Shown here in pieces: positions 17,229 through 35,361 of a stretch of DNA of 64,000 nt. The stretch's first letter is position 1. Each line of letters opens with the position of its first letter. The DNA comes from Rhodobiaceae bacterium (GTDB taxonomy: Bacteria > Pseudomonadota > Alphaproteobacteria > Rhizobiales > JAKPQE01). A program made the translations under genes and the position numbers. The notes under the pieces were generated by a model that was not told where the DNA came from, did no database searches, and saw only the letters and a program-made list of their open reading frames with translations. The DNA lies in assembly GCA_028278505.1 (NCBI GenBank), contig JANQEG010000074.1, positions 3,175-67,174 of the forward strand, written 5' to 3'.

Positions 17229-20200
17229 TCAACCAGATGGCAGGGCCGCCGCGCCGGACTCCGCCGTTACCCCGTCGTCCTCGTCCTCTTCCAGCCGGCG
17301 CAGTCCGAGATCATCGAAAATGCAGTAGACCGCCGGCACCACGAGCACCGAGATGATGCTGGCAACCGCCAGTCCGTAGGCAAGGCTCGTCGCCAGCGGG
17401 ATCAGCACCTGCGCCTGCAGGCTGGTTTCCGACAAGAGCGGGATGAGGCCGGCGACGGTGGTCGCCGTGGTCAGCACGATCGGCCGGAAGCGCCGGCGCG
17501 TGGCTTCGCCGGCCGCCTCGGCGGCGGAAGCGCCGCGGGCGCGGGCGCCGTCCATGAACTGGACCAGCAGGATCGAATTGTTGACGACGACCCCGGCCAG
17601 CGACGCCACGCCGACAATGCTCGGCATCGACAAATTGAGGCCGGTCAGCCAGTGGCCGAGGAAAGCGCCGACGACGCTGGAGGGGATCACCACCATGACG
17701 ATCACCGGCGCGAAATAGCCGCGGAACTGAAAGGCGAGCAGCAGGTAGACGCCGATCAGGCCGAAACTGATATTGCGCAGGATCGAGGCGCTGGTGACCG
17801 CGCCCTCCTTGTTCTGGCCCTCGACCGCATAGTCGATGCCGGGATAGCGGGCGATGAGATCGGGCAGAAACTGCGCCTGGGCTTCGCCGACGATCTCGTT
17901 GGCGTTGGCGATCCTGCCGTCGACGTCGCCGATGATGCCGACGGCGCGGCGGCCATTGACGCGGTTGATGCGGCCCCAACTCCGGCGTTGCTCGATCGTC
18001 GCCACCGCTTCGAGCGGCACCAAATCGCCGCCCGGACCGATCAGGGTGAAGCGGTCGAGGTCGGCGAGTTCGTCGCGGGCGCCGGCCATGGTCCGCACTT
18101 CGATCTCGTAGGATTCCGGGCCGATCTGCAGATCGTCGACCTTGACCCCCTGAAACGCCGCCTGCAATTGCTGGGCGATCATGCGGCTGTCGAAGCCGAG
18201 CGCGCCGGCGCCGTCCTTGAGCGTGATCGTGACTTCCGGCTTGCCCGGGCGCAGATCGTCGGAAAGATCGAAAACACCCTTGAAACCGGCCAGATAGGAC
18301 TTGAATTCGAGTGCGGCGCTTTTCAACTGATCGAGATCGTCGCCGCTCAGCCGCAGATCGATGGCGCGGCCGCCGGGGCCGATCGTCGATTCAGTGAATT
18401 TGAGCGAGATGGCGTCGGCGATCTCTCCGGTCTCACGCCGCCACAGTGCGATGATGTCGTCGGTGGTGCCGGTGCGCAGTTCGGCGCTCAACAGGTCGAC
18501 GATGACGCGGACGACATGGGGGCCGGTCTCGAACGCGTCCGGGTTCTGGCCGTAGAGCACGGTCACCGCCTTGACGAGCTTCTGTCCGTCCGGCTGTCGC
18601 GGGGTGAATTCGGCATCGACGGCGGCGATCCCGGCATCGATCGCGGCCACGGCCGCTTGCGTGCGGCCGAGCGGCGTGCCCTGCGGCAGGATCAGCCGCG
18701 CCTCGACGATGTCGCCGTCGATCTCGGGAAAGGCGACGAATTTCAGGAAACCGCCGGCGGGCAGCGCCAGCGTTAAAAGCAGAAGCAGAAAGGAGAGGCC
18801 GAGGGTCAGATAGCGCCAGCGCACCGCAAGGTCGGCAAGCCGGCCGAAAATGCCGACGCCATAACGCTGGAAGCCTTTGTCGAAAGCGCTCCGGAACCGG
18901 GATTGCCTGGTCGAGGCGTGGTGCAGGGAGTGCGACAGATGGTTCGGCAGGATCAGGAAGGCCTCGATCAGGCTGACCGCGAGCGTGAAGATCAGCACCA
19001 CCGGGATCACCCGCAGGATCTGGCCGATATCGCCGGAAATGAAGGCGAGCGCGCCGAACACGAACATGGTCGTGATGAACGAGGCGGCGACGCCGGGCAG
19101 CACCTCCAGCGTGCCGTTGACCGCCGACTTTATCCGGTTCTCGCCGCGGCGCAGATGCACGGCGATGTTTTCGGAGATGACGATCGCGTCGTCCATCAAC
19201 AGGCCGATGGCGACCAGCAGACCGACCATGGTCAGCATGTTGATGGAATAGCCGATCAACCACATTGCGGCGATGGCGCCGAGGAAGGAGACCGGCAGCC
19301 CCATCGCCACCCAGAACGAAAACCGCAGCGAAAAGAACAGCCATAAGACCAGGAAGACGAGCACCAGGCCCTGGGCGCCATTGCGCAGAAGCAGGTTCAG
19401 CCGGTTGCGGACGATGGTCGCGGAATCCCGCGCCACGTCGATTTCCGCCCCGGCGGGCAGGCGCTTGCGCTCGGCCGCGACGAAGGCGGCAATCGCATCG
19501 GCGACATCGAGGGTATCCTCGGCCTTGGTCTTTTCGACATCGAGCACGGCGGCGCGCCGGCCGTTGAACAGCACCATGTCCTCCGGCCGGTCGAACAGAT
19601 CGGTCACGGTTGCGATATCGCCGAGGCGGATGTTGGCGCCGGCATCGCTGGTGACGACGACGAGATCGGCAAACGCCCGGACATCGGTGCGCTCGTCGTC
19701 GATGCGCAACAGGAAGTCGCCGTTGCCGCCCTCGATCAGCCCGACCGGCTGGCCGATCGAGAGCCGGCCGATCCGGTCGGCAAGCTCGCTGACCGAAAGC
19801 CCGTAGGCGCGCAGCCTTGCGGCGGAGACGGAAATGCGGATCTGGCGGTCTGAAAACCCGCCAATGGTGACCTTGGAGGCGACGCCGGCGCGGATCACCC
19901 GGTCCTTGATGTCCTCGGCGAGCGCCTTCAGATCGGTCGGCGATCGCGGCCCGGTGACCATGACCGAGGCGACGAATTCGGTGCGGCCGACCTCGCGGAC
20001 CACCGGTTTTTCAATGTCGTCGGGGAAGTCGTCGATACCGTCGATGGCGCTCGACACGTCGTCGAGGAAGCGCACGATATCGCCGGTCTCCTCCATCTCG
20101 GCGGTGGCAATCGCGATATTCTCGCGGGAATCGCACTGGGTCTCGACGAGATCGACGGTGCCCTCGAGCGCGTCCTCGATGCGGGCGCAGATGGCGCCCT

Positions 20201-20372
20201 CGATCTCGACCGCGGTGGCGCCGGGATAGGCGACGGTGATTTCGACCGTGTCGTTCTTCAGATCGGGAAAGGTCGCCCGCTTCAGCGCCGGATAGGCCGC
20301 CAGGCCGATCACGAAAATCGCGATCATGGTGAGGTTGGCGGCGACCGGATGGCGCGCGAAATAGCCGATCAT
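17229..20372 (-). CDS. RND efflux permease (AcrB/AcrD/AcrF family)
   Basis: 1047 aa, with 12-TM and two-large-loop architecture. Overlaps the upstream adaptor gene by 4 nt. Confidence 0.9.
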   Translation of the reverse strand: MIGYFARHPVAANLTMIAIFVIGLAAYPALKRATFPDLKNDTVEITVAYPGATAVEIEGAICARIEDALEGTVDLVETQCDSRENIAIATAEMEETGDIVRFLDDVSSAIDGIDDFPDDIEKPVVREVGRTEFVASVMVTGPRSPTDLKALAEDIKDRVIRAGVASKVTIGGFSDRQIRISVSAARLRAYGLSVSELADRIGRLSIGQPVGLIEGGNGDFLLRIDDERTDVRAFADLVVVTSDAGANIRLGDIATVTDLFDRPEDMVLFNGRRAAVLDVEKTKAEDTLDVADAIAAFVAAERKRLPAGAEIDVARDSATIVRNRLNLLLRNGAQGLVLVFLVLWLFFSLRFSFWVAMGLPVSFLGAIAAMWLIGYSINMLTMVGLLVAIGLLMDDAIVISENIAVHLRRGENRIKSAVNGTLEVLPGVAASFITTMFVFGALAFISGDIGQILRVIPVVLIFTLAVSLIEAFLILPNHLSHSLHHASTRQSRFRSAFDKGFQRYGVGIFGRLADLAVRWRYLTLGLSFLLLLLTLALPAGGFLKFVAFPEIDGDIVEARLILPQGTPLGRTQAAVAAIDAGIAAVDAEFTPRQPDGQKLVKAVTVLYGQNPDAFETGPHVVRVIVDLLSAELRTGTTDDIIALWRRETGEIADAISLKFTESTIGPGGRAIDLRLSGDDLDQLKSAALEFKSYLAGFKGVFDLSDDLRPGKPEVTITLKDGAGALGFDSRMIAQQLQAAFQGVKVDDLQIGPESYEIEVRTMAGARDELADLDRFTLIGPGGDLVPLEAVATIEQRRSWGRINRVNGRRAVGIIGDVDGRIANANEIVGEAQAQFLPDLIARYPGIDYAVEGQNKEGAVTSASILRNISFGLIGVYLLLAFQFRGYFAPVIVMVVIPSSVVGAFLGHWLTGLNLSMPSIVGVASLAGVVVNNSILLVQFMDGARARGASAAEAAGEATRRRFRPIVLTTATTVAGLIPLLSETSLQAQVLIPLATSLAYGLAVASIISVLVVPAVYCIFDDLGLRRLEEDEDDGVTAESGAAALPSG

Positions 20373-21706
20373 TGCCCTGCTCCGGCCTCGGCGGCGAGTG
20401 CCGATTGCGCGTCTTCGTCGGTGACCGGGTTAAGCAGCATCCCGTCGACCGCCGGGATGAGATCGGAGACGACCAGGGTTTCGCCGCCGGCAAGGCCGTC
20501 GACGACCGGAACAATGCCGTTGGTGTGCGGTCCTGTCCGGACGCTGCGGATGTCGAGGCGGTTTTCGTCGTCAACCAGATAGACGGCCGCGCCGTGCAGC
20601 GCCGTCCGCGGTACGACAATGCGGCCGGGTTGCGCCTTGCCGCTGATCTCGACCTCGACGAACATGCCGTTGACCAGCGGCGGCCGCGCGCCGCCCTTGA
20701 TGTCCTCATAGGGCCGGTCGACGGCGATGACGACGCCGACGGTCCGCGTCTTCTGGTCGAGGGCGCCGGCTATGCGCAGGAACTCGCCGGGCCATTCGAT
20801 GCTGTTGTTGCCGATATCGAGCCTGACCACCGGCCGGAAGCCGGCGCGCTCGGGCAATTCCTTCGACGATTTCAGCGGGTCGATGACGAAATCGGGATCT
20901 TGCGGAAACAGCGAGGCGAGCCGGTCGATCGACAGCGGCACGGTGATTTCGACCCGGTTGATCGAATCGCCGACGAACAGGGTCTGACCGGTGCTGACGA
21001 ACTGCGCCAGCTCGACGGCGACCTCGCGTACGCGGATATCGAACGGGGCGCGGATCACCGTGTTGTCGAGATCGAGCCGGGCACTGGCGATCTGCGCCTC
21101 CAGCACGTTGATCTGGGCCGGGATCAGCGCCAGCTTGCTGCGCTCATTCTGCACCGCCTGGCGCGAGGCAAGCACCGTGCGTTCGGCGGCGTCGACATTG
21201 CTCTGCGCCGTCGTTCCGCGGGCGGCGAGGTTCTTCTTGCGCTCCAGATCGGCTTCAACGAGCGCCAGATTGCGCTCCTCGATCGCCAGCGAAGCCTTGC
21301 CGTTCTCGTTCTCGATCTCTTTTTGTGCAAGTTGCGCCTGCAATTCTGCAAGCGCGAGTTTAAAGGCGGCGGGATCGATTTTGATCAGGACTTCGCTCTT
21401 GGCGATGATCGAGCCGTCGCGCAAGAGCGGGTGAACCTCGATGATCCGGCCCGGGACCTCCGCGACCGCGTTCCACGAATGCTCCGGCTTGACCGTTCCG
21501 AAACCGTTGACGCGGGGGACGAGATCGAGCTTCGGCACCTCTATAACCCGCACCTTGCGGCCGATTTCGGCGGCCTCGGTGCGTTCCGGTCCGGGTTTGC
21601 TGCCGGCCGCCATCACCAGCACGGAAATGCCGAGCGCAATGGGCGCGGCGACGGCGATGAGCCGTCCGGCAATCGTCAGTATTCCCGCCATCTCCGGTCC
21701 CTTCAC
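20369..21706 (-). CDS. RND efflux periplasmic adaptor (MFP/HlyD family)
   Basis: N-terminal anchor, coiled-coil (LAELQAQLAQKEIENENGK...), then a beta-barrel region. Translationally coupled to the RND permease. Confidence 0.85.
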   Translation of the reverse strand: MKGPEMAGILTIAGRLIAVAAPIALGISVLVMAAGSKPGPERTEAAEIGRKVRVIEVPKLDLVPRVNGFGTVKPEHSWNAVAEVPGRIIEVHPLLRDGSIIAKSEVLIKIDPAAFKLALAELQAQLAQKEIENENGKASLAIEERNLALVEADLERKKNLAARGTTAQSNVDAAERTVLASRQAVQNERSKLALIPAQINVLEAQIASARLDLDNTVIRAPFDIRVREVAVELAQFVSTGQTLFVGDSINRVEITVPLSIDRLASLFPQDPDFVIDPLKSSKELPERAGFRPVVRLDIGNNSIEWPGEFLRIAGALDQKTRTVGVVIAVDRPYEDIKGGARPPLVNGMFVEVEISGKAQPGRIVVPRTALHGAAVYLVDDENRLDIRSVRTGPHTNGIVPVVDGLAGGETLVVSDLIPAVDGMLLNPVTDEDAQSALAAEAGAGQ

Positions 21707-21921
21707 ACCCCGTCACAACGATCGCAAACAGGGTGTCTATAGTCGCTTCGTTTCGCGGTGACAAAAAAACGGCAAATTGCTCAAACTTTTGCCATGAGGG
21801 TGTAAAGCGATTGACCGAACGCCATACATCCATCACATTCCGCCCAGTCTGAATGCTGACGGACTGTAATCGGCGGCGGCAGCGGCCGCCAGTGATCTTC
21901 CGCAAACTGTTGGGAACGCCT

Positions 21922-23709
21922 ATGCCGGCAGATATCACGGCAATTCTCGATCGATACGGTGCCGACCGGACCCGACTGCTCGACATGTTGTGGGCGGTCC
22001 AGGATGCCGACGGCCACATCACTCAGCCGGCAATCGAAGGCCTGGCCGCCGGGCTTTCGCTGTCGCGCGCCGAGATCGAGGAAACCGTCAGCTTCTACCA
22101 TTTCTTTTCGATGCAGCCGGCCGGCCGCCACCGCATCTATCTCAACAACGATGTTTCGACGCAGTTAAGCGGTCGCTACGAGGCGGTCCGCGACGCCTTC
22201 GAGGAGGCCTGCGGCTGCACTTTCGGCACGGTCAGCGCCGACGGCCGCTTCGGCCTTTACGACACCGCCTGCATCGGCATGTGCGACCGCGAACCGGCGG
22301 CGCTGATCGATTTCGTTCCGTTCACCGATCTGACGCCGGAGCGGGTGGCGAAGATCGTCGCGAGCCTCAAGGACGGTGTCGCGACGAAATCGCTCGCGGC
22401 AGCATTCGACAGCGGCTGCGATGTCGTCACCACCAGATGGCAGCGGACCGGACCGGTGTTCGATCCCAGAACCGCCGCCGGGCCGTCGCTGGAGGCGCTG
22501 TTTTCACTCGCCCCCGGGGAAATCCTCGAGGCGGTGGCCGCATCGGGCCTGCGCGGGCGCGGCGGCGCCGGTTTTTCGACCGGGCTCAAATGGCGCCTCT
22601 GCCGCGAGACGAAGGCGGCAACCCGCTATGTCGTCTGCAACGCCGATGAGGGCGAGCCCGGAACCTTCAAGGATCGCGCCCTGTTGACCGATATGCCGCA
22701 TCTGCTGATCGAGGGCATGGTCGCAGCGGCTTACGCGATCGACGCCAGCGCCGGCGTCATCTATCTGCGCGCCGAATACCGCTATCTGTTCGATCGCCTG
22801 GACTCGCTCATCGCCGACTACCGCAAGGCCGGCTGGCTCGGCCACAACATCGCCGGCAGCGGCTTTGATTTCGACCTCCGCCTTCAGCTCGGCGCCGGCT
22901 CCTATGTCTGCGGCGAGGAATCGGCGCTGATCGAGTCGATGGAAGGCAAGCGCGGCAGCCCGCGCAACCGCCCGCCCTTTCCGGTCGAGGCCGGTTTTTG
23001 CGGCATGCCGACGATCGTCAACAATGTCGAAACGCTGGCCGCGGTGCCGCGCATCCTCAAAGAGGGCGCCGATTGGTATGCCGGTTTCGGCACCGAGAAA
23101 TCGCCGGGCACCAAGCTGTTGAGTGTCGCCGGTGATTGCGCCCGCCCGGGCATTTACGAGGTGCCTTTCGGCATCACCGTCGGCGAATTCCTCGACATGG
23201 TCGGCGCCGAGCCGGCGCTGGCGCTGCAGGTCAGCGGCCCCTCGGGCGAATGCATCAATGCGGCGCAATCCCGGCATCGCCGGCTTTGCCACGAGGATCT
23301 GTCGATCGGCGGCGCCATGACGGTGTTTTCCGCAGAGCGCGACCTGCTCGACCATATGAGCCGGTTCCTGTCCTTTTTCATCGCCGAATCCTGCGGCATC
23401 TGCACGCCATGCCGGTCGGGCAATGTGGCAATGAAGACGCTGCTCGAACGGCTCCGCGACGGCCGCGGCGAACAGCGCCATCTGGCCGACCTCGAACGTT
23501 GGGGCCATATCATCGCCGAGACGAGCCGCTGCGGGCTCGGGGCGTCGGCTCCCAATCCGGTGCTGTCGAGCCTGCGCGAATTCCCCGATCTCTATGCGGC
23601 GCTCGTCGACGGCCGCGAGGCGGAGATGTTCGTGCCCGGCTTCGATCTCGATGCGAGCACCGGCGACTATCGCCGCATCGTCGAAAGGGCGCGCAGCAAT
23701 GGCCGATGA
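21922..23709 (+). CDS. hoxF: NAD-reducing [NiFe]-hydrogenase diaphorase subunit HoxF (fused NuoE-like and NuoF-like domains)
   Basis: NuoE-like N-terminus (LLDMLWAVQD...VSFYHFF). NuoF-like GRGGAGFSTGLKW and CNADEGEPGTFKDR. Cluster motif ESCGICTPCR. Confidence 0.85.
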   Translation: MPADITAILDRYGADRTRLLDMLWAVQDADGHITQPAIEGLAAGLSLSRAEIEETVSFYHFFSMQPAGRHRIYLNNDVSTQLSGRYEAVRDAFEEACGCTFGTVSADGRFGLYDTACIGMCDREPAALIDFVPFTDLTPERVAKIVASLKDGVATKSLAAAFDSGCDVVTTRWQRTGPVFDPRTAAGPSLEALFSLAPGEILEAVAASGLRGRGGAGFSTGLKWRLCRETKAATRYVVCNADEGEPGTFKDRALLTDMPHLLIEGMVAAAYAIDASAGVIYLRAEYRYLFDRLDSLIADYRKAGWLGHNIAGSGFDFDLRLQLGAGSYVCGEESALIESMEGKRGSPRNRPPFPVEAGFCGMPTIVNNVETLAAVPRILKEGADWYAGFGTEKSPGTKLLSVAGDCARPGIYEVPFGITVGEFLDMVGAEPALALQVSGPSGECINAAQSRHRRLCHEDLSIGGAMTVFSAERDLLDHMSRFLSFFIAESCGICTPCRSGNVAMKTLLERLRDGRGEQRHLADLERWGHIIAETSRCGLGASAPNPVLSSLREFPDLYAALVDGREAEMFVPGFDLDASTGDYRRIVERARSNGR

Positions 23710-24397
23710 GGTAACCTTCTTCATTGACGGGCGCCCGTGCACGGCGGCGGCCGGCGACAATCTGGTCGAGGCGGCGGCGGACAACGGCGTCTACATCCCG
23801 ACGCTGTGTCATTACAAGGGCCACAAGCCGCTCGGCACCTGCCGCGTCTGCATGGTGCGGGTCGACGGCCGCGAGGCGGCGGCCTGCACCTTCGGCGTCC
23901 GTGACGGCATGCGCGTCGATGTCGACGCGCCGGAGCTCGCCGATGCCCGCAAGGCGCTGATCGAGTTGCTTTTCGTCGAGCGCAATCATTTCTGCCCGGC
24001 GTGCGAGAAGAGCGGGCGCTGCGATTTGCAGGCGGTCGCCTATCACATGCATCTGACGGTGCCGCGGTTTCCCTATCGCTACGTTCCGTTCACGGTGGAG
24101 AATTTCGCCGGCAAATTGCTCATCGATCACAATCGTTGCATACTGTGCGGGCGCTGCGAGGAATTCGTCCGCCGCGGCGACAGTAAGGTGTTCGCCATGA
24201 AGCAGCGCTCGTCGGAGGCGCGGATCACCGTCGATCTGGCGCTGCTGGCGGAAATGAGTGCGAACGAAATCGCGCATGCCGTGCATGTCTGCCCGGTCGG
24301 CGCGATCCTGGCGCCGGGACAGGGCTTCGACACGCCGATCGGGCGGCGCAAATACGACACGCACCGGATCGGAGAAATCACCGATGGACGGGACTGA
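23699..24397 (+). CDS. hoxU: hydrogenase diaphorase iron-sulfur subunit HoxU (NuoG N-terminal-like)
   Basis: VTFFIDGRPC...LCHYKGHKPLGTCRVCMV, HFCPACEKSGRCDLQ and CILCGRC. Overlaps the hoxF stop by 11 nt. Confidence 0.85.
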   Translation: MADEVTFFIDGRPCTAAAGDNLVEAAADNGVYIPTLCHYKGHKPLGTCRVCMVRVDGREAAACTFGVRDGMRVDVDAPELADARKALIELLFVERNHFCPACEKSGRCDLQAVAYHMHLTVPRFPYRYVPFTVENFAGKLLIDHNRCILCGRCEEFVRRGDSKVFAMKQRSSEARITVDLALLAEMSANEIAHAVHVCPVGAILAPGQGFDTPIGRRKYDTHRIGEITDGRD

Positions 24398-24950
24398 GGC
24401 GCCGCACAAGAAGCCGATCCTGGCGACGGTATCGCTTGCGGGATGTTTCGGCTGCCACATGTCGCTGCTCGACGCCGATGAGCGCATTCTCGATGTGCTG
24501 GCCGCGTTCGAACTGCACCGCTCGCCCCTGACCGACATCAAGCGCTTCGCCAAGCGCTGCGATGTCGGGCTGATCGAGGGCGGTTGCTGCAACGACGAAA
24601 ATGTCCACGTGCTGCGCGAATTCCGCGAGAATTGCGACGTGCTGGTCGCCGTCGGCGCCTGTGCCATCAATGGCGGCCTGCCGGCGCTGCGCAACGAGAT
24701 CGGCCTGGAGGCCTGCCTCACCGAGGCCTATCTGGAGATGCCGACGGGCGCCGGCGCCGAGGGCATCATTCCCGCCGACGCCGACATCCCGAAGCTGCTC
24801 GACCGGGTCTATCCCTGCCACGAGGTGGTAAAAATCGATTATTTCCTGCCCGGCTGCCCGCCCCCGGCAGATGCCTTTTGGGCGCTGCTGACGGCGCTGG
24901 CGGCCGGACGCGCCCCCGATCTGCCGACGGAGCTGATCCACTACGATTAG
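24384..24950 (+). CDS. hoxY: [NiFe]-hydrogenase small subunit HoxY (group 3)
   Basis: ILATVSLAGCFGCHMSLLD...GGCCNDENV...VGACAINGG...LPGCPP. Overlaps hoxU by 14 nt. Confidence 0.85.
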   Translation: MDGTEAPHKKPILATVSLAGCFGCHMSLLDADERILDVLAAFELHRSPLTDIKRFAKRCDVGLIEGGCCNDENVHVLREFRENCDVLVAVGACAINGGLPALRNEIGLEACLTEAYLEMPTGAGAEGIIPADADIPKLLDRVYPCHEVVKIDYFLPGCPPPADAFWALLTALAAGRAPDLPTELIHYD

Positions 24951-25111
24951 CGCCGTTGCCGAAGCGACGGTTCGCGTTCGCGAAAAGGGGGGAACCGGTT
25001 TTCGAATGGGAATACGCGATCTAGATAAGGGGAGGGAGCGCTTTTTAAGGGTTTCGATCCAAGCAAGGAGCGCTCTCGCCGGACAAGCCAGAAAAGCCGC
25101 GGGGCAACGCC

Positions 25112-26572
25112 ATGAACACTGGGCAGAAAATCGTCATCGATCCGGTCACCCGCGTCGAGGGTCACGGCCGCATCACGGTTCATCTCGACGAGAACCATCA
25201 CGTCGAGGAGGCACGGCTGCACATCGTCGAGTTCCGCGGCTTCGAGAAGTTCGTGCACGGCCGGCCCTATTGGGAGGTGCCGGTGCTGGTCCAGCGGCTG
25301 TGCGGCATCTGCCCGGTCAGCCATCATCTCGCCGGCGCCAAGGCGATCGACGAAATCGTCGGCATCAGCCCCGGCAGCGACCACACGCTGACACCGACGG
25401 CGGAGAAGATGCGCCGGCTCATGCATTACGGCCAGGTGTTCCAGTCGCACGTGCTGCATTTCTTCTATCTGTGCTCGCCGGACCTTCTGTTCGGCATCGA
25501 CGGCGAGGTGGAAAGTCGCAACATTGTCGGCGTCGCCATGGCCGAGCCGGAACTGGCCAAGAAGGCGATCCTGATGCGCAAGTTCGGCCAGGAGATCATC
25601 CGCGCGACGGCGGGCAAGAAGGTGCACGGGATTTCCGCCGTGCCGGGCGGCATCCACAAGACGCTGTCGGCGGAGGAGCGCGACTATTTCCTCAACGGCA
25701 AGGAAATTCCGGCGATCGACACCATGATCGACTGGGCGCTCGAAGGGCTCGACTTCTTCAAGAGCTTCCACCGCGACAACCGCGAATGGCTCGACGGTTA
25801 CGCGGCGGTGCCATCGAGCCATATGGGCATGGTGCGCAAGGACGGAGCGCTCGACCTCTATCACGGCGACCTCAAAGTGGTCGACGCCGAGGGCACGCTG
25901 CTGCAGACCTTCGACTATCACGACTATCTGAACGAGCTCGGCGAAGAGACCAAGAGCTGGTCCTATATGAAATTCCCCTATCTGCGCAGCCTCGGCCGCC
26001 AAGACGGCTGGTACCGGGTCGGGCCGCTGCCGCGCCTCAACGTCTGCGAGTTCCTGCCCTCGCCGCTGGCGCAGAAGGAATTCGAGGCGTTCCGCGCCTA
26101 TACCGGCGGCCGCGCCAACAACATGTCGATGCACTATCACTGGGCGCGGCTGATCGAGGTCGTGCACGCAGCCGAAGTGATCCGCGACCTGCTGGCCGAT
26201 CCCGATCTGCAGAAGGACAATCTGATTGCCCGCGGGACGGCGGCGGGCGAGGGCATCGGCGTCGTCGAGGCGCCGCGCGGCACGCTCTTCCACCACTATA
26301 AGGTCGACGATGCCGGCCGCATCAATTTCTGCAATCTGATCGTCTCGACCACCAACAACAACACCGCCATGAACCGGGCGGTGGCGGCGGCGGCGGAGGA
26401 TCTGATGGAGGGCGTGCCCGAAGTCACCGAAGCGATGACCAATGGCGTCGAGGTGGTGCTGCGCGCCTATGATCCGTGCCTGTCCTGCGCCACCCATGCG
26501 GTCGGCCAGATGCCGCTCAGGATCGAGCTCTACGATGCCGGGGGTACGCTCCGCGATGTCCGGGTCAGGTGA
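25112..26572 (+). CDS. hoxH: [NiFe]-hydrogenase large subunit HoxH (group 3d-like)
   Basis: N-terminal RVEGHGRI and RLCGICPVSH. C-terminal DPCLSCATH followed by a cleavable extension. Confidence 0.9.
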   Translation: MNTGQKIVIDPVTRVEGHGRITVHLDENHHVEEARLHIVEFRGFEKFVHGRPYWEVPVLVQRLCGICPVSHHLAGAKAIDEIVGISPGSDHTLTPTAEKMRRLMHYGQVFQSHVLHFFYLCSPDLLFGIDGEVESRNIVGVAMAEPELAKKAILMRKFGQEIIRATAGKKVHGISAVPGGIHKTLSAEERDYFLNGKEIPAIDTMIDWALEGLDFFKSFHRDNREWLDGYAAVPSSHMGMVRKDGALDLYHGDLKVVDAEGTLLQTFDYHDYLNELGEETKSWSYMKFPYLRSLGRQDGWYRVGPLPRLNVCEFLPSPLAQKEFEAFRAYTGGRANNMSMHYHWARLIEVVHAAEVIRDLLADPDLQKDNLIARGTAAGEGIGVVEAPRGTLFHHYKVDDAGRINFCNLIVSTTNNNTAMNRAVAAAAEDLMEGVPEVTEAMTNGVEVVLRAYDPCLSCATHAVGQMPLRIELYDAGGTLRDVRVR

Positions 26573-27068
26573 GGCCGGGGCGAAGCGAATCCTGGTCTGC
26601 ACGATCGGCAATCCCGGGCGCGGCGATGACGGCCTCGGCTGGGCGTTCGCCGATGCGCTCGAAGCGCAATGCGGTGACACGCTCGACATCGAGCGCTGCT
26701 ATCAACTCGCGCCGGAAGACGCCGAGCGGTTCGCCCGCCGCGAACACCTGGTTCTGGTCGACGCCACCGTCGCCGCCGATGTCGAGACATTTCGCCGGCG
26801 TATGATTGTACCCGACGACGCCAATACGGCGGCGATTTCGAGCCATCGGCTCGATCCGGTCGCCGCCGTCACGCTCGCCGCCCGCCTCTACGGCCGGGCG
26901 CCGCGGACCGAACTCATCGAGATCCGCGGCTATCGCTTCGAACTCGATATCGGTCTGTCGGAGGCGGCTGCCGTCAATCTCGACCTTGCGCTTGCCGCCG
27001 CCGCCGACCTTGCCGGCGGGGAAACCGCGGCGATGTCACGCGACGACGCACCGATCGTCGAATCGTGA
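26556..27068 (+). CDS. hoxW: hydrogenase maturation endopeptidase HoxW
   Basis: RILVCTIGNPGRGDDGLGWAF motif. ATG 26556 overlaps the hoxH end by 17 nt. Confidence 0.75.
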   Translation: MSGSGEAGAKRILVCTIGNPGRGDDGLGWAFADALEAQCGDTLDIERCYQLAPEDAERFARREHLVLVDATVAADVETFRRRMIVPDDANTAAISSHRLDPVAAVTLAARLYGRAPRTELIEIRGYRFELDIGLSEAAAVNLDLALAAAADLAGGETAAMSRDDAPIVES

Positions 27069-28210: not shown

Positions 28211-28522
28211 CGACATACCGTGTTGAGCGGGACAATGGGTCCCTCACAAAAACCATTCCAGCAGGCTTGAAAACACAGTTGCCCGCTTCCGCGGGGACGG
28301 TGGGTGTTGTTGGCGTTTGCGTTTCAATTCAAACCTTCCCCGCGAAAGCGGGGAACCATTGGCGGTCGGGCATTCAGGAGCGTTCGAATGCCTTCACGAA
28401 TGCGTTGGCAAGTCGACAAGCCAATGGACCTCCCGGACAAGCCGGGCGGTGACGAGGGAGGGGTTGGGCGGTGACGAGGGAGGGGTTGGGTGGTGACAAG
28501 GGAGGGGTTGGGTGGTGACGCC
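28211..28522. repeat. mosaic repeat cluster including a 3 x 22-bp tandem repeat (28447-28512)
   Basis: The module shared with 7507-7565 lies at 28217-28315 and carries a roughly 40-bp insertion. It also has hairpin ccccgcgaaagcgggg and a reversed family A interior. Units cggtgacgagggaggggttggg x2, then tggtgacaagggaggggttggg. Confidence 0.8.
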
Positions 28523-28710: not shown

Positions 28711-28724
28711 TTGATATGCGTCAA
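28711..28724. promoter_or_regulatory. FNR/FixK-type box TTGATATGCGTCAA
   Basis: Fits TTGA-N6-TCAA and 9/10 of TTGAT-N4-ATCAA. Centred 55-76 bp upstream of the two candidate hynD start codons. Immediately followed by a 28-nt pure A/T run (28729-28756). Confidence 0.45.
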
Positions 28725-28771
28725 GGCGTTTTATTATTTATTATATTAATATATTAGTCGATAAGAATGAC

Positions 28772-29296
28772 ATGCTTTCGGGACTCCGGAATATGAACCG
28801 GGAAGACGAAGCTTGCCTTGAACACCGCCAGGCGAAAGTCCTGGTTCTCGGTGTCGGCAATATCCTCTACCGCGACGACGGGATAGGCCCGGCGGCGGTC
28901 TCGCAACTGGGCGCCGAGGGCATTCATGCGTCGTGCGCCGATTTCCTCGACGGCGGCACGATTGCGCTCTCGCTCCTGCCCGAGATCGAGGATCGCGACG
29001 CGTTGATCGTCGTCGATGCGGCGCGGCTCGACGCGCCGCCCGGAACGATCTGCATATTCGAAGGGATCGAGATGGATTCGCGGCTGACCGGCAGCCGGCG
29101 AAGCGTCCATGACGTCGCCGTCGCCGACGCCATGACGGCGGCGCAGCTTGCCGGGACCCTGCCCGAGCGGCGGGCGCTCGTCTGCGTCGCCCCGGAGACG
29201 GTCGATCTCGGCCTCGGCCTCAGCCCGGCGGTCGCTGCGGCGCTGCCGGAAACCTGCCGCACGATCGGCGGTCTGATCGAGAGGTGGTCGTCATGA
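28772..29296 (+). CDS. hynD: [NiFe]-hydrogenase maturation endopeptidase (HyaD/HupD/HynD family)
   Basis: VLVLGVGNILYRDDGIGPAAV, DGGT and ALIVVDAA motifs. An alternative start is ATG 28793. Confidence 0.8.
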   Translation: MLSGLRNMNREDEACLEHRQAKVLVLGVGNILYRDDGIGPAAVSQLGAEGIHASCADFLDGGTIALSLLPEIEDRDALIVVDAARLDAPPGTICIFEGIEMDSRLTGSRRSVHDVAVADAMTAAQLAGTLPERRALVCVAPETVDLGLGLSPAVAAALPETCRTIGGLIERWSS

Positions 29297-29730
29297 GCCG
29301 GTTCGCCAGGCCGCATTGGGTGGAGAAGATGTCGTCCGGCATGGCGAAGCCGCTCATCGGCGAGATTTCCGCAGCGCTCGACACGCTGGCCGCGACCGGC
29401 GTTGCCGGCGCCATCGATCTCTCCGGCCTGCCGCTGACCGCGACCGACCGCGCCGAACTTGAGGTGGCCCTCGGCAGCGGCGAGGTCGAAGCGAAAGTGA
29501 CGGCGGCCGGCACCAGCGAAATCCGCGAGACCGGCTTTGCCGGGGTGTGGTGGGTCCGGCATTTCGACGCCGGCGGCCGCGTGCTTGCCGAGATCCTTGA
29601 GATTGCGTTCGTGCCGCAACTGCTCGGCGCGCAAGGCGACGACATCGACGCTGCGGCAAGGCGGCTGCGCACGGAATTGGCGCGAACACCGGAACGAGAA
29701 ACCGGTCGGGAGACGGTTCATGCAGATTGA
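29293..29730 (+). CDS. HupH/HyaF C-terminal-domain-like hydrogenase accessory protein (single domain, 145 aa)
   Basis: LSGLPLTATDRAELEVALGSGEV...ETGFAGVWWVRHFD...LEIAFVP resembles the HupH_C/HyaF signature. ATGA overlap with hynD. Confidence 0.55.
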   Translation: MSRFARPHWVEKMSSGMAKPLIGEISAALDTLAATGVAGAIDLSGLPLTATDRAELEVALGSGEVEAKVTAAGTSEIRETGFAGVWWVRHFDAGGRVLAEILEIAFVPQLLGAQGDDIDAAARRLRTELARTPERETGRETVHAD

Positions 29731-30856
29731 CGAGACGACACCGAATGCGGCGCGGTCGGCCGCTTCAGGCGATGACCGGACGCTGGGCGCGCTGCTTGCC
29801 GCGCGCGGCGTATCGCGGCGGGCGTTCCTGAAATATTCGAGCTATCTCGCCTCGCTGCTGGCGCTGCCGGCGTCAATGGCGCCGGCGATGGCGGCGTCCC
29901 TGGCCAAGGCGCAGCGCCAATCGGTGATCTGGCTGTCGTTCCAGGAATGCACCGGCTGCACCGAATCGCTGACCCGCTCGCTGAGCCCAACGCTCGACGA
30001 CCTGATCTTCGACTTCATCTCGCTCGACTACCACCACACCCTGCAGGCCGCCTCCGGCCACGCCGCCGAAGAGGCGCGCATGCAGGCGATGGAGGCGCAT
30101 AAGGGCAAGTACATCGTCGCCGTCGACGGTTCGGTGCCGGTCAAGGATGGCGGCATCTATTCGACCATCGCCGGGATGAGCAATCTCGACATCTTAGAGG
30201 AAACCACCAAGGACGCCTTCGCCGTCGTGGCGATCGGCTCGTGTGCGGCGTTTGGCGGCCTGCCGCTCGCCGATCCCAATCCGACCGGCGCGGTGCCGGT
30301 CACCGAACTGGTCACCGACAAGCCGGTCATCAACATTCCCGGCTGTCCGCCCATCCCCGAAGCGATGGCCGCCGTGCTCGCCCATGTGCTCACTTTCGGC
30401 ATTCTGCCCGAGCTCGACAGCCTCGGCCGGCCGAAATCCTTCTATGGCGAATCGGTCCATGACCGCTGCTACCGGCGGCCGTTCTACGACCGCGGCGAGT
30501 TTGCCGAGAGCTTCGACGATGAAGGCGCGAAGAAGGGCTGGTGCCTCTACAAGCTCGGCTGCAAGGGCCCGGCCACCTCCAATGCCTGCGCCACGGTCAA
30601 GTGGAACGGCGGCACGAGCTTCCCGATCGAGGCCGGCCATCCCTGCCTCGGCTGCTCCGAGCCGGGCTTCTGGGACATGGGCGGCTTCTACAGGGCGCTG
30701 TCGGTGCCAACCGGGGACGTCGCCAGGATCGCCGCGGTCGCGGCCGGGGCCGGCGTCGTCGCCGGGGCGGCCGCCGGTGCGCTGCACCGGGCGACCAAGA
30801 GTGCGGCACGCGGCAAGCACCACACGGTCACGGTCGAGGAGCTGGAGGAAAAATGA
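29720..30856 (+). CDS. hynS: [NiFe]-hydrogenase small subunit, Tat-exported (Isp-type, group 1e-like)
   Basis: Twin-arginine signal GVSRRAFLKYSS, then WLSFQECTGCTESL, GSCAAFGG, PGCPP and C-terminal cluster cysteines plus a hydrophobic tail. Overlaps the upstream gene by 11 nt. Confidence 0.9.
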   Translation: MQIDETTPNAARSAASGDDRTLGALLAARGVSRRAFLKYSSYLASLLALPASMAPAMAASLAKAQRQSVIWLSFQECTGCTESLTRSLSPTLDDLIFDFISLDYHHTLQAASGHAAEEARMQAMEAHKGKYIVAVDGSVPVKDGGIYSTIAGMSNLDILEETTKDAFAVVAIGSCAAFGGLPLADPNPTGAVPVTELVTDKPVINIPGCPPIPEAMAAVLAHVLTFGILPELDSLGRPKSFYGESVHDRCYRRPFYDRGEFAESFDDEGAKKGWCLYKLGCKGPATSNACATVKWNGGTSFPIEAGHPCLGCSEPGFWDMGGFYRALSVPTGDVARIAAVAAGAGVVAGAAAGALHRATKSAARGKHHTVTVEELEEK

Positions 30857-31515
30857 TGACTGCGGTCGACTTCCTCGCCTTCACCCGCGGCCCGCTGTTC
30901 GACGTGGCGCTGATCATCTTCATCGCCGGCCTGGCGATCCGGTTCGTCGAGATCCTGGTGCTCGGCCGACGGCGCGATTTCTCCGAACCGCGCCGGGGCG
31001 GGTTCGGCAGCGGGCTCCGGACCATGTTCAGCCGGACGCTGCCCGAGACAGGCACCATGAAGCGTGCGCCGACGACGGTGGTCGCCGGCTGGGTGTTTCA
31101 TATCGGCTTCCTGGTGACGCTCCTGCTGTTCGTCCCGCATATCGAGATGTTCCAGGCGGTGCTCGGTTTCGGCTGGCCGGGCCTGCCGACGCCGATCATC
31201 GACTTTGCCGGCATCCTGGCGATGGTGGCGATGGTCGTGGTGCTGATCAACCGGCTGCGCAATCCGGTGATGCGCTTCCTTTCCGGCTTCGGCGACTACC
31301 TGCCGTGGCTCTTGACGTTCCTGCCGCTGATTACCGGCTGGCTCGTCTTCCACCGGCTGCTGCTGCCCTATCCCGCCATGCTCGGCCTGCACATCCTGTC
31401 GGTCGAGCTTTTGATGATCCTATTTCCCTTCACCAAGCTGATGCACACCTTCACCGCGTTCCTGGCGCGCTACTACACCGGTGCTGCTTTCGGCCGAAAG
31501 GGGGTGCAGTCATGA
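30853..31515 (+). CDS. isp1: Isp1-like integral membrane cytochrome b (NarI/DsrM-like)
   Basis: 220 aa with about 5 TM segments and conserved His residues in the helices. ATGA overlap with the hynS stop. Lies between the small and large subunit genes, as in Isp-type operons. Confidence 0.7.
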   Translation: MMTAVDFLAFTRGPLFDVALIIFIAGLAIRFVEILVLGRRRDFSEPRRGGFGSGLRTMFSRTLPETGTMKRAPTTVVAGWVFHIGFLVTLLLFVPHIEMFQAVLGFGWPGLPTPIIDFAGILAMVAMVVVLINRLRNPVMRFLSGFGDYLPWLLTFLPLITGWLVFHRLLLPYPAMLGLHILSVELLMILFPFTKLMHTFTAFLARYYTGAAFGRKGVQS

Positions 31516-32786
31516 GCGCGAATGTCGAGCGGGCGGTCAATGCCTTCAAGGAACAGATCGACGCGTCGACCGCGGCCTTCTTTTCGTCCTGCGTGCATTG
31601 CGGCCTATGCGCCGAGGCGTGCCTGTTCTACCTGGAGACCGGCGACCCGAAATATACGCCGATCCACAAGCTGGAGCCGCTGCGCCGGGTGTGGTGGAGC
31701 AGCTACACCCTGTTCGGCCGGCTTGCCTCGCTGATCGGCCTTGCGCCCAAGGTCACCGACGATCTGCTCAAGGACTGGAAGGAGCTGGTCTACGATTCCT
31801 GCTCTATGTGCGGCCGCTGCTCGATGGTGTGCCCGGTCGGTAACGACATTACCGGCATGATCCGTAAAGAGCGCGAGGGCATGATCGCCGCCGGCCATGC
31901 GCCGGACGGTCTGAAGGGCGCGTCGTCGCGTGCCATCAAGATCGGCAGCCCGATGGGCGTCACCCTGAAGGCGGTGAAGGCGCAGATCGGGCACCTCGAG
32001 GCCGATACCGGCATGACCATCCCCGTCAATGTCGAGGGCGCCGAATATCTGGTGCTGATGTCGTCGATGGAGATCATGAACTACCCGGAATATCTCGAAG
32101 CGATCGCCCGCATCTTTGAAGCGGCCGGGGCGAGCTGGACGATCGCCAGCGACGCCTTTGAGGCAACCAATTCCGGCATCCAGATCGGCGCCTCCGACAT
32201 CGCCCGGGAACTGGTCATGCGCATCGTTGCGGCGGCGGAGCGGCTCAAGGTCAAGACGGTGATCAGCCCCGAATGCGGCCACGCCTATACGGCGCTGCGC
32301 TGGGAAGGGCCGAACCTGATCGGCCGGCCGTTTCCGTTCAAGGCCCGCCACATCCTGGAAGTGCTCGACGAATTCCGCGCCGACGGCCGGCTTCAGACCG
32401 AAGGCTTCGAAGAAGACCGGCTGACCTTCCACGACCCGTGCCAGATCGTGCGCCGCGGCGGCGTCATCGACGAGCCGCGCCGGCTGATCGACATGGTCGC
32501 CAAGGACTTCGTCGAGATGGACGACAACGGCCGATACAATTGGTGCTGCGGCGCCGGCGGCGGCGTCAGCGCCATCGAAGAGGCGCACGATTTGAAGCTG
32601 ACCGCGTTCCTGAAGAAGAAGAAGCAGCTCGATGCGGTGAAACCCGAAAAGCTGATGACCGCCTGCGCCAATTGCCGCATCCAGCTCGAAGAGGGGATGG
32701 AGGAGACCGGCATGGACATCCCGGTCATCGGACTGACCGAGACACTCGCCGAACATTTGAAGACCCCGGAGACCGCGAAAGGATGA
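31512..32786 (+). CDS. isp2: Isp2-like iron-sulfur protein (HdrD/DsrK-like, 2x[4Fe-4S] plus CCG domains)
   Basis: CVHCGLCAEAC and CSMCGRCSMVCP ferredoxin motifs. CCG-type motifs HDPCQIVRRGG and NWCCGAGGG. ATGA overlap with isp1. Confidence 0.8.
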   Translation: MSANVERAVNAFKEQIDASTAAFFSSCVHCGLCAEACLFYLETGDPKYTPIHKLEPLRRVWWSSYTLFGRLASLIGLAPKVTDDLLKDWKELVYDSCSMCGRCSMVCPVGNDITGMIRKEREGMIAAGHAPDGLKGASSRAIKIGSPMGVTLKAVKAQIGHLEADTGMTIPVNVEGAEYLVLMSSMEIMNYPEYLEAIARIFEAAGASWTIASDAFEATNSGIQIGASDIARELVMRIVAAAERLKVKTVISPECGHAYTALRWEGPNLIGRPFPFKARHILEVLDEFRADGRLQTEGFEEDRLTFHDPCQIVRRGGVIDEPRRLIDMVAKDFVEMDDNGRYNWCCGAGGGVSAIEEAHDLKLTAFLKKKKQLDAVKPEKLMTACANCRIQLEEGMEETGMDIPVIGLTETLAEHLKTPETAKG

Positions 32787-33241
32787 CGACGATGGCGCAG
32801 ATCACGGATGACGGCGCCTTCCGCGCGGCGCTGGACGGATTGCCGATTGCCGATCAGCGCGCGGTCGGCGCGAAATTCGTCGAATCGGTCCTGCCCTTGA
32901 ACGATGACGGCCGCGTTCGCCGCGTCGTCGAGGCGGCGGCAAGCGGTGCGGCGGACACGCTCGACGATGCCTTCCACAACGCCCGGCGGGCCAGCATCGA
33001 CAGCCATGCGCGCTGCGGTTCGGAAGGCGATTGGCGCGCGCAGGCGGCCTATTTCGTCGCCCGCGCGGCGACCGCGATCGTCACCCCGGAAGGGCACGGC
33101 AAGACGGGCAACCTCGCCTGGGAGGCGGCAGCGGCGAGCCGCATGGCGCGGACCTGCAGCCTGATCGATGACGAGGCCGATCCGGGCGAGCGCGAGGCGC
33201 TGCGCCAGTATCGGATTCTGAACGACTACCTCGAACGGTGA
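32783..33241 (+). CDS. uncharacterised 152-aa protein embedded between isp2 and hynL
   Basis: ATG 32783 overlaps the isp2 stop (ATGA). Stop lies 14 nt before the hynL ATG. Codon usage is genome-like. Predicted soluble and Ala-rich/helical. No signal peptide and no metal-cluster cysteine motif. Confidence 0.6.
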   Translation: MTTMAQITDDGAFRAALDGLPIADQRAVGAKFVESVLPLNDDGRVRRVVEAAASGAADTLDDAFHNARRASIDSHARCGSEGDWRAQAAYFVARAATAIVTPEGHGKTGNLAWEAAAASRMARTCSLIDDEADPGEREALRQYRILNDYLER

Positions 33242-33255
33242 GGAGCGAGGCGGAA

Positions 33256-34974
33256 ATGACGGAACGTGTCGTAGTCGATCCCATTACCCGAATCGAGGGG
33301 CATCTGCGCATCGAGGCGCAGATGGAGGGCGACAAGATCGCCGAGGCCTATTCCTCCGGCACCATGGTGCGCGGCATCGAGATCATCCTCAGGGGCCGCG
33401 ACCCGCGCGACGCCTGGGCGTTCGCCCAGCGCATATGCGGCGTCTGCACGCTGGTCCACGGCATCGCCTCGGTGCGCGCGGTGGAAAACGCGCTCAACTA
33501 TCAGGTTCCGCCGAACGCGCAGATGATCCGCAATCTGATGATCGCGGCGCAATATGTGCACGACCACGTCATGCACTTCTATCATCTGCATGCGCTCGAC
33601 TGGGTCGACGTGGTCTCCGCGCTCGATGCGGACCCGAAGGCGACCTCGGAACTGGCCCAGGCGATCAGTTCCTATCCGAAATCCTCGCCTGGATATTTTG
33701 CCGACGTAAAGACCAAGCTGAAGGGCTTCGTCGACGGCGGCCAGCTCGGCATCTTCGCCAATGGCTATTGGGGCCATCCGGCCTACAAATTGCCGGCGGA
33801 AGCCAATCTGATGGCCGTCGCCCACTATCTGGAGGCGCTGACCTGGCAGCGCGACGTCGTCCAGATCCACACCATTTTCGGCGGCAAGAACCCGCATCCG
33901 AACTTCCTCGTCGGCGGCGTGCCGTCGCCGATCGACCTCAATTCGGATTCGGCGATCAATTCCAGGCGGCTGGCCGAGGTGCAGAACATCATTTCGCGTA
34001 TGCGCGCCTTCGTCGACCAGGTCTACGTTCCCGATACGCTGGCGATCGCGGGCTTCTACAAGGATTGGGGCGCGCAGGGCGAGGGCGTCGGCAATTTCCT
34101 CACCTATGGTGACTTCCCCGAAAAGGGCATGGACGATCCCTCGACCTATCTGGTGCCCTCCGGTGTCATCCTCAACCGCAATCTCGACGAGGTGCACGAG
34201 GTCGATTTGCACGCCGACGACCAGATCCAGGAGTTCATCGCCCATTCCTGGTACGATTACGAAAAGGGCGACAAGGCCGGCCTGCACCCCTATGCCGGCG
34301 AGACCGCGTTCAACTATACCGGCCCGAAGCCGCCCTTCGACCAGCTTGATGTCGGCAACGCCTATTCCTGGCTGAAATCGCCGCGCTGGCGCGGCCTGCC
34401 GATGGAGGTCGGCCCGCTTGCCCGGGTGCTGATGCTCTACGCCAAGGGCCATGACCAGACGCGCGAGCTCGTCGATATGACGCTGTCGCACCTGAACGTG
34501 CCGCCGGCGGCCTTGTTCTCAACGCTCGGGCGCACCGCGGCGCGGACGCTGGAAACGAAAATCTTCGCCGACACTATGCAGACCTGGTTCGACAATCTGG
34601 TCGCCAACATCAAGGCCGGCGACACCAGGACCCACAACGGCGCGAAATGGGAGCCCTCGACCTGGCCGGCGACGGCCCGCGGCGTCGGCATCATGGAGGC
34701 GCCGCGCGGCGGGCTCGCCCACTGGATCGTGATCGAGAACGGTAGAATCGCCAATTATCAGGCGGTGGTGCCGTCGACCTGGAACGCCGGCCCGCGCGAC
34801 GACAAGGGCCAGCCGGGGCCTTACGAGGCGGCGCTCGCCGGACATACGCTGCACGATCCCAAGCAGCCGATCGAGATCCTGCGCACGATCCACAGCTTCG
34901 ATCCCTGCATCGCCTGCGCCGTGCACGTCAATGATCCCGACGGCAACGAGCTGATCCGGGTCGATGTGAGTTGA
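33256..34974 (+). CDS. hynL: [NiFe]-hydrogenase large subunit (Isp-type, group 1e-like)
   Basis: ITRIEGHLRIE and RICGVCTLVHG. C-terminal DPCIACAVH followed by a 15-aa extension. RBS gaggagcgagg upstream. Confidence 0.9.
   Translation: MTERVVVDPITRIEGHLRIEAQMEGDKIAEAYSSGTMVRGIEIILRGRDPRDAWAFAQRICGVCTLVHGIASVRAVENALNYQVPPNAQMIRNLMIAAQYVHDHVMHFYHLHALDWVDVVSALDADPKATSELAQAISSYPKSSPGYFADVKTKLKGFVDGGQLGIFANGYWGHPAYKLPAEANLMAVAHYLEALTWQRDVVQIHTIFGGKNPHPNFLVGGVPSPIDLNSDSAINSRRLAEVQNIISRMRAFVDQVYVPDTLAIAGFYKDWGAQGEGVGNFLTYGDFPEKGMDDPSTYLVPSGVILNRNLDEVHEVDLHADDQIQEFIAHSWYDYEKGDKAGLHPYAGETAFNYTGPKPPFDQLDVGNAYSWLKSPRWRGLPMEVGPLARVLMLYAKGHDQTRELVDMTLSHLNVPPAALFSTLGRTAARTLETKIFADTMQTWFDNLVANIKAGDTRTHNGAKWEPSTWPATARGVGIMEAPRGGLAHWIVIENGRIANYQAVVPSTWNAGPRDDKGQPGPYEAALAGHTLHDPKQPIEILRTIHSFDPCIACAVHVNDPDGNELIRVDVS

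Positions 34975-35171: not shown

Positions 35172-35361
<190 letters not shown>

Follow-up and report, generated by a model that had tools for sequence, protein, structure and literature searches.

Seven genes on the forward strand of a 64,000-nucleotide (nt) stretch of contig JANQEG010000074.1 (Rhodobiaceae bacterium, assembly GCA_028278505.1; hereafter the window) encode the two subunits of a [NiFe]-hydrogenase, HynS and HynL, together with the membrane cytochrome Isp1, the iron–sulfur (Fe-S) protein Isp2, a maturation protease, a short HupH-like protein and a protein of 152 amino acids (aa) from an unnamed family (Table 1). Judged from its sequence, the cluster is very probably an intact operon for a periplasmic hydrogenase of the Isp type (group 1e), with genes arranged as they commonly are in sulfur-oxidising proteobacteria. 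The host probably belongs to the Hyphomicrobiales. Pfam and NCBIfam matches confirm the identities of six of the seven genes, the exception being the gene for the 152-aa protein, which is referred to below as the fifth gene with respect to the core hynS-isp1-isp2-hynL.

The operon is compact. Direct reading of the sequence and the listing of open reading frames bear out the layout proposed by an earlier interpretation of the DNA letters (the sequence-only reading), which described seven genes joined by overlaps with a single final gap: four junctions are ATGA overlaps, hupH_C and hynS overlap by 11 nt, and 14 nt separate the fifth gene from hynL. Shine–Dalgarno-like purine runs lie 5' of all six internal genes, and G+C content at third codon positions (GC3) is 0.79-0.89 across all seven. 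The start that the same reading had placed at 28711 needs correction, since this position is out of the hynD frame and the first start after the in-frame stop is the ATG at 28772. Positions 28711-28771 instead form part of a 636-nt intergenic region 5' of hynD that becomes AT-rich at its end. The AT-rich block there is a likely promoter or regulatory region, and a tandem repeat further upstream in the same region (28444-28520; 22-bp unit GGGCGGTGACGAGGGAGGGGTT, 3.5 copies, 94% matches) may be regulatory too. A consensus scan found no sigma-70-like site on the + strand within 28731-28771, and promoter and terminator scans at the operon ends gave nothing exceeding shuffled expectation.

Table 1. 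Features of the Isp-type hydrogenase operon and of its surroundings in the window
Feature	Position	Strand	Product	Evidence and remarks
AT-rich block	28731-28771	.		About 40 nt of almost pure A+T directly 5' of the hynD start; sequence reading
hynD	28772-29296	+	174 aa	HynL C-terminal-extension endopeptidase; Pfam HycI 7.5e-19, TIGR00072 3.1e-36
hupH/hynH (HupH_C-only accessory gene)	29293-29730	+	145 aa	Pfam HupH_C 7e-28
hynS	29720-30856	+	378 aa	Small subunit; Pfam Oxidored_q6 and NiFe_hyd_SSU_C, TIGR00391 3.9e-130
isp1	30853-31515	+	220 aa	NarI/HmcE/TmcC/DsrM-like membrane cytochrome b; NCBIfam TmcC 4.6e-38, HmcE 5.8e-28
isp2	31512-32786	+	424 aa	Cytoplasmic HdrD/DsrK-like Fe-S protein; NCBIfam DsrK 1.5e-68, HmcF 3.2e-59, TmcB 5.7e-54; Pfam Fer4_8 and CCG
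Fifth gene	32783-33241	+	152 aa	Unnamed family, predicted cytoplasmic all-helical protein; no family match
hynL	33256-34974	+	572 aa	Large subunit; Pfam NiFeSe_Hases 3.4e-240
tRNA-Ser(CGA)	35272-35361	-		About 300 nt 3' of hynL
hoxF, hoxU, hoxY, hoxH, probable hoxW	21853-27068	+		Second hydrogenase; directly upstream of the Isp operon region
AcrB-family RND transporter and HlyD-family adaptor genes	17229-21706	-	1047 aa (transporter)	Upstream of the hox genes; unrelated to the hydrogenase operon

Both hydrogenase subunits point to group 1e. When compared with all PDB chains, HynL matches 3MYR_B, the Isp-type HydL of Allochromatium vinosum, best (985 bits; 74% identity over 561 aligned columns), while the next-best structure, Salmonella Hyd-5 of group 1d, scores 745 bits, 240 bits lower, and the scores against Hyd-2 and the Desulfovibrio enzymes are about 570 bits or less. 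The top PDB match of HynS is likewise from the A. vinosum enzyme (3MYR_A, 461 bits). HynL carries the Ni-Fe motifs RICGVC at residue 59 and DPCIACAVH at residue 549, the latter followed by 15 residues, an extension of the kind that HynD trims. HynS has the Tat motif SRRAFLK at its N-terminus, ten cysteines and a C-terminal hydrophobic stretch at residues 334-355. Its proximal cluster motif is the standard four-cysteine ECTGC, with glycine at the extra-cysteine position, and it does not have the six-cysteine O2-tolerant proximal cluster that is a trait of group 1d. Nor is there a HyaC/HupC cytochrome b gene, another group 1d trait, 3' of the large-subunit gene, where tRNA-Ser and rplU are found. 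Assignment to the Isp type (group 1e), as the sequence-only reading had suggested, is well supported because 3MYR is the best match of both subunits by a wide margin and HynL reaches 74% identity; the location of isp1 and isp2 between the subunit genes, the Ni-Fe motifs and the Tat signal accord with it. The assignment was made from the best PDB matches and from synteny with 80 Isp2-bearing loci.

Isp1 has about five hydrophobic segments, in which four histidines are sited (H83, H96, H180 and H198), each kept by 97% or more of 78 sequences; these histidines would be enough for two b haems. Isp2 contains two CX2CX2CX3C (4Fe-4S) motifs and the CCG-type cysteines C310, C345, C346, C385 and C388, all conserved in 81 sequences, and no transmembrane segment is predicted in it. 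The NCBIfam scores of Isp2 are 231.5 for DsrK (cut-off 400), 200.9 for HmcF (cut-off 750) and 183.3 for TmcB (cut-off 735), and those of Isp1 are 130.9 for TmcC (cut-off 240) and 98.1 for HmcE (cut-off 275). Isp2 therefore falls outside the DsrK, HmcF and TmcB equivalogs and Isp1 outside the DsrM, HmcE and TmcC equivalogs and, since all these scores lie under the cut-offs, the two proteins represent homologous yet separate subfamilies. The view of isp1 as encoding a NarI/DsrM-like cytochrome b and of isp2 as encoding an HdrD/DsrK-like protein stands, on the evidence of the NCBIfam and Pfam matches and of the conserved histidines and cysteines. The DsrMK, HmcEF and TmcBC modules of sulfate reducers and sulfur oxidisers consist of cytochrome b and CCG-type Fe-S subunits homologous to Isp1 and Isp2, with which they have the haem histidines and the CCG cysteines in common. 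They differ in the electron donor, which is the attached [NiFe]-hydrogenase for Isp1/Isp2 and cytochrome c for DsrMK, HmcEF and TmcBC.

The product of the fifth gene has 114 homologues that are 41-62% identical to it, every one of them annotated as hypothetical; the NCBI-derived entry of the gene starts at the second ATG and is 149 aa long. An exhaustive profile search of 1.84 billion proteins yielded 212 clusters at 50% identity, and nearly all family members are single-domain proteins of about 150 residues. All sequences in an alignment of 30 members share C78 (within RCG), W84 and several arginines, and nearly all have C125 (within RMARTC). C78 and C125 are the only two cysteines of the window protein, which is acidic (pI 5.0) and lacks hydrophobic segments. 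An AlphaFold2 model built from the family alignment consists of seven helices with a mean pLDDT of 91.9, and comparison of this model with the PDB using Foldseek returned no fold relative (best E 0.09, TM 0.37).

The sequence-only reading had treated this gene as one without a known identity, and the searches agree. Neither the window protein nor the 30 family members match any Pfam or NCBIfam entry, and single-sequence and profile searches of the window protein against PDB sequences gave nothing significant. No similarity to HypA-F, HyaE/HybE or HupF/G/H/J/K was detected by sequence or fold. TmcD, considered as an analogue, gave no NCBIfam match, and the literature search on it yielded nothing usable. 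The fifth gene is not described in the literature searched (queries 'isp3' and hynS with hynL, isp2 and 'hypothetical protein'). Several candidate identities were set aside. Matches to RecA in the PDB come from artificial multi-copy fusion chains and include zero passing stretches; the JGI label 'PAPS 3'-phosphatase' on some family members is taken to be spurious and goes back to a weak TIGR01331 match (E 0.0044); and Orf2 of Alteromonas was rejected as a counterpart, being 407 aa long, with no plasmid carrying a fifth-gene homologue.

The frequency of this gene order was assessed by an Isp2 scan of one genome per GTDB species, in which the best 80 of 567 relatives' loci were kept and typed by tblastn with the seven window proteins. 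The pair hynD-hupH_C lies directly 5' of hynS in 68 of the 71 loci with enough upstream sequence, which come from Alpha-, Beta- and Gammaproteobacteria. Among the 76 loci in which the state of the fifth gene can be determined, it lies between isp2 and hynL in 34, directly 3' of hynL in seven and is missing from the locus in 35. The complete order of seven genes is found again in Rhodobium orientis, Thiothrix, Thiobacillaceae, Gallionellaceae and many metagenomic contigs, as well as in the Solemya pervernicosa symbiont, where it is identical to that of the window. The leading position of the maturation genes, which the sequence-only reading took to be non-canonical, is thus the usual one among these relatives and is also published for Acidithiobacillus ferrooxidans.

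On a neighbour-joining tree of Isp2, the window protein falls on a branch with Rhodobium orientis and two other metagenome-assembled genomes (MAGs), one of which is labelled Hyphomicrobiales; its best match among GTDB species representatives is 77% identical. Loci with the fifth gene between isp2 and hynL are spread over this tree. They include alphaproteobacteria (Rhodobium orientis, Hyphomicrobiales MAGs and the window), betaproteobacteria (Thiobacillaceae, Gallionellaceae and Burkholderiales) and several gammaproteobacterial clades, for example Thiothrix, Thiolapillus and the Solemya symbiont. Absence of the gene is mostly confined to one heavily sampled clade of Sedimenticolaceae, Thiodiazotropha and tubeworm symbionts, together with scattered losses, and its placement after hynL is essentially a feature of a single clade. 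Plasmid pHY1 of Methylovirgula sp. HY1 (locus L091, 2459-8746) has the order isp2-hynD-hupH-hynS-isp1-hynL without the fifth gene, a permutation which shows that gene order in group 1e is fluid. A proteobacterial-type Isp operon also occurs in a MAG labelled Candidatus Bathyarchaeota archaeon (L082; Isp2 68% and HynL 79% identical to the window proteins), where the contig is most likely a binning contaminant.

The linkage of the fifth gene to Isp operons also holds when the search is seeded with the family's own profile and is therefore unbiased toward Isp2. In such a metagenome scan, 70 of 80 loci have the order isp2-fifth gene-hynL and a further eight are cut at a contig end in a way consistent with it; one has hynL followed by the fifth gene, and one (L163) has the gene among unrelated genes. 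The most divergent operon member checked, at 43% identity, is still found between isp2 and hynL. Outside hydrogenase loci, distant paralogues that are 30-34% identical occur in L088 (1038-1523), L089 (584-1081) and L090 (711-1208). These lack C78 and keep the RMA(R/Q)TC motif, and those in L089 and L090 have trpS and arfB as neighbours. The stand-alone relative in L163 (5977-6468) lies among aminotransferase, GGDEF and radical SAM genes. PLSDB plasmids contain no homologue of the 152-aa protein, including those with the isp-less HynSL operons of Alteromonas, Glaciecola and Bradyrhizobium BTAi1. The family is small, well conserved and unnamed, and its members are almost always found in Isp-type hydrogenase operons.

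Some related Isp-type operons contain DsrC-family genes whose products have two C-terminal cysteines; the window has no such gene. In a Sedimenticolaceae genome, a DsrC-like gene lies between hupH_C and hynS (L084, 4063-4452), and in four loci of the clade with the fifth gene after hynL it directly follows the gene for the 152-aa protein (L011, 11571-11870; L038, 9225-9512; L042, 11385-11657; L076, 11560-11904). Such genes are in keeping with action of the DsrK-like Isp2 on a substrate resembling DsrC.

Among published systems, the closest in layout is the group 1e cluster of A. ferrooxidans ATCC 23270 (AFE_3281-3290), which reads hynD-hynH-hynS-isp1-isp2-hynL-hypABCD (PMC5021923; PMC2621215). 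As in the window, hynD and hynH/hupH lead the cluster and isp1 and isp2 separate hynS from hynL; consecutive locus tags allow no space for the fifth gene between isp2 and hynL. The two differ 3' of hynL, where A. ferrooxidans has hypA-D and the window has tRNA-Ser followed by rplU, without hyp genes. The sequence-only reading had allowed that the seven-gene order might turn out to be both common and already characterised. It is common, but it has been characterised for only six of the seven genes.

The operon of Alteromonas macleodii has the leader order hynD-hupH-hynS-hynL without isp1 or isp2, and its HupH is required for maximal HynSL activity (PMC3102683); the plasmid sequence agrees with the published layout. 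A homologue of the 152-aa protein is likewise missing from it, in contrast to the window. The HupH_C protein of the window is 30% identical to the Alteromonas plasmid HupH (E 9e-22), and the HynL proteins are about 61% identical. The core hynS-isp1-isp2-hynL is shared by the window with the HynSL (HydSL) enzyme of Thiocapsa roseopersicina/T. bogorovii and with HydSL of A. vinosum, which also have a Tat-exported small subunit, a b-haem Isp1 and an HdrD-like Isp2. Unlike Thiocapsa, the window has hynD and hupH_C in the lead and the 152-aa gene between isp2 and hynL. The Thiocapsa hynD and hyp genes presumably lie downstream or elsewhere. Thiocapsa isp1/isp2 mutants retain hydrogenase activity in vitro and lose it in vivo. 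In T. bogorovii BBS, the locus tags of hydS, isp1, isp2 and hydL are consecutive and the fifth gene is lacking (PMC10892978), in keeping with the textbook Thiocapsa/Allochromatium operon as the sequence-only reading gave it. Group 1e has already been reported in an alphaproteobacterium, Methylovirgula HY1 (PMC9371685).

Two other accounts of the operon as a whole can be weighed against this evidence. An O2-tolerant uptake enzyme (group 1d) or a Hyd-2-like enzyme (group 1c) lying beside unrelated Fe-S genes might be entertained on the ground that group 1d structures are the second-best PDB matches, at 745 bits or less. This is scarcely credible when the match to 3MYR is better by 240 bits, the proximal motif of HynS is ECTGC rather than a six-cysteine one, and the operon contains neither a HyaC/HupC-type cytochrome b gene nor HybA/HybB genes; moreover, isp1 and isp2 are translationally coupled within the operon, and the 80 genome loci that the Isp2 scan retrieved keep them in that position. 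The other account, put forward by the sequence-only reading, is a distinct alphaproteobacterial subtype of Isp-hydrogenase with a lineage-specific gene order. The separate branch that the window Isp2 forms with Rhodobium orientis and two MAGs, and a textbook Thiocapsa operon without the leader genes and without the fifth gene, speak in its favour. The synteny survey refutes it, since the identical seven-gene order is found in Beta- and Gammaproteobacteria, and the different order in another alphaproteobacterium, Methylovirgula HY1, and the leader order in print for A. ferrooxidans argue in the same direction, so that such a subtype is very improbable.

For the 152-aa protein itself, the best guess, and a tentative one whose chances fall a little short of even, is that it acts in the cytoplasm together with the Isp1/Isp2 module. 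The gene is found in isp-containing operons and not in the isp-less plasmid HynSL operons, it overlaps isp2 by ATGA, its product has two conserved cysteines amid conserved arginines, and a DsrC-like gene directly follows it in four loci. Pairwise distances across 56 loci correlate with those of Isp1 (0.57) and Isp2 (0.51) and less so with those of HynL (0.23), although shared phylogeny confounds this mirror-tree comparison, which carries no test of significance. That limit weighs against a partnership with Isp1/Isp2, as do the absence of the gene from about half of the sampled Isp operons, the divergent stand-alone paralogues outside hydrogenase loci, and the fact that the gene adjoins hynL, 5' or 3', which would suit an assembly factor equally. 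Enzyme-specific chaperones are common in hydrogenase operons, and a cytoplasmic assembly or proofreading factor for HynL or the HynSL precursor, playing a part like that of HyaE/HybE or HupG/HupJ instead of partnering Isp2, would account for a small, soluble, acidic protein whose gene is always directly beside hynL (mostly 5', in one clade 3') and has been lost in several lineages, as is often the case with accessory chaperones. Such a factor is nonetheless the less likely of the two readings, as the protein has no sequence or fold likeness to known hydrogenase chaperones, the gene is missing from close isp-less HynSL operons that retain hynD and hupH, and its distances correlate least with HynL. 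Other roles take up what probability these two leave. The more specific form of the Isp1/Isp2 partnership, in which the family would be an unrecognised cytoplasmic component of Isp-hydrogenases, a cysteine-bearing partner or adaptor of the DsrK-like Isp2 that possibly hands over a thiol, persulfide or DsrC-like substrate, is speculative and rather improbable.

The operon as described would support the following scheme. HynD would trim HynL and the short HupH would aid maturation, as in Alteromonas; the HynSL dimer would be assembled in the cytoplasm and, given the Tat signal of HynS, should then be exported. H2 would be oxidised in the periplasm, and the HynS clusters would hand the electrons to the haems of Isp1. 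One acceptor from these haems would be quinone; the other would be Isp2 on the far side of the membrane, reducing a thiol, a disulfide or a sulfur carrier in the cytoplasm. Electron flow could run in both directions. We infer this path from studies of Thiocapsa and by homology with the DsrMK, HmcEF and TmcBC modules. Reports on Thiocapsa and A. ferrooxidans suggest that bidirectional activity may be tied to sulfur or quinone metabolism in vivo. Weighing against the scheme, Isp2 may even in Thiocapsa be either a reductant of a disulfide or sulfur carrier or a mere aid to quinone coupling.

The window contains a second hydrogenase cluster upstream of the Isp operon. Its hoxF encodes a 618-aa protein with a fused HoxE/NuoE-like 2Fe-2S domain and is accompanied by hoxU (267 aa), hoxY (230 aa), hoxH (486 aa) and a probable hoxW, whose protease product has a GNxxxxDDGxG motif and no Pfam match at 1e-3. 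The cluster looks like one for an NAD-linked bidirectional group 3-type hydrogenase, as in Thiocapsa. A gene for a small membrane protein and then msrA lie between the hox genes and the Isp operon, the end of which is marked by tRNA-Ser(CGA), followed by rplU, a GNAT gene, obg, proB and proA. A tblastn search of the 64-kb window with HypA-E from the related locus L002 found no hypA-E homologues, and both hydrogenases must therefore rely on hyp genes elsewhere in the genome.

The operon is an ordinary further member of a known and common Isp type, situated beside a Hox-type hydrogenase, and its only new element is the 152-aa gene family, the gene order being otherwise known. The survey corrects a common picture, in that the four-gene hynS-isp1-isp2-hynL arrangement with downstream maturation genes, taken from purple sulfur bacteria, is atypical of sequenced genomes; most relatives have hynD-hupH first, and many have an extra unnamed gene beside hynL. 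This family is a concrete candidate for study of the way in which Isp1/Isp2 tie H2 to the chemistry of sulfur or quinones, on which the DsrC-like genes within some Isp operons also bear. If its members do prove to be cysteine-bearing partners of Isp2, they would point to the cytoplasmic electron acceptor of Isp-type hydrogenases.

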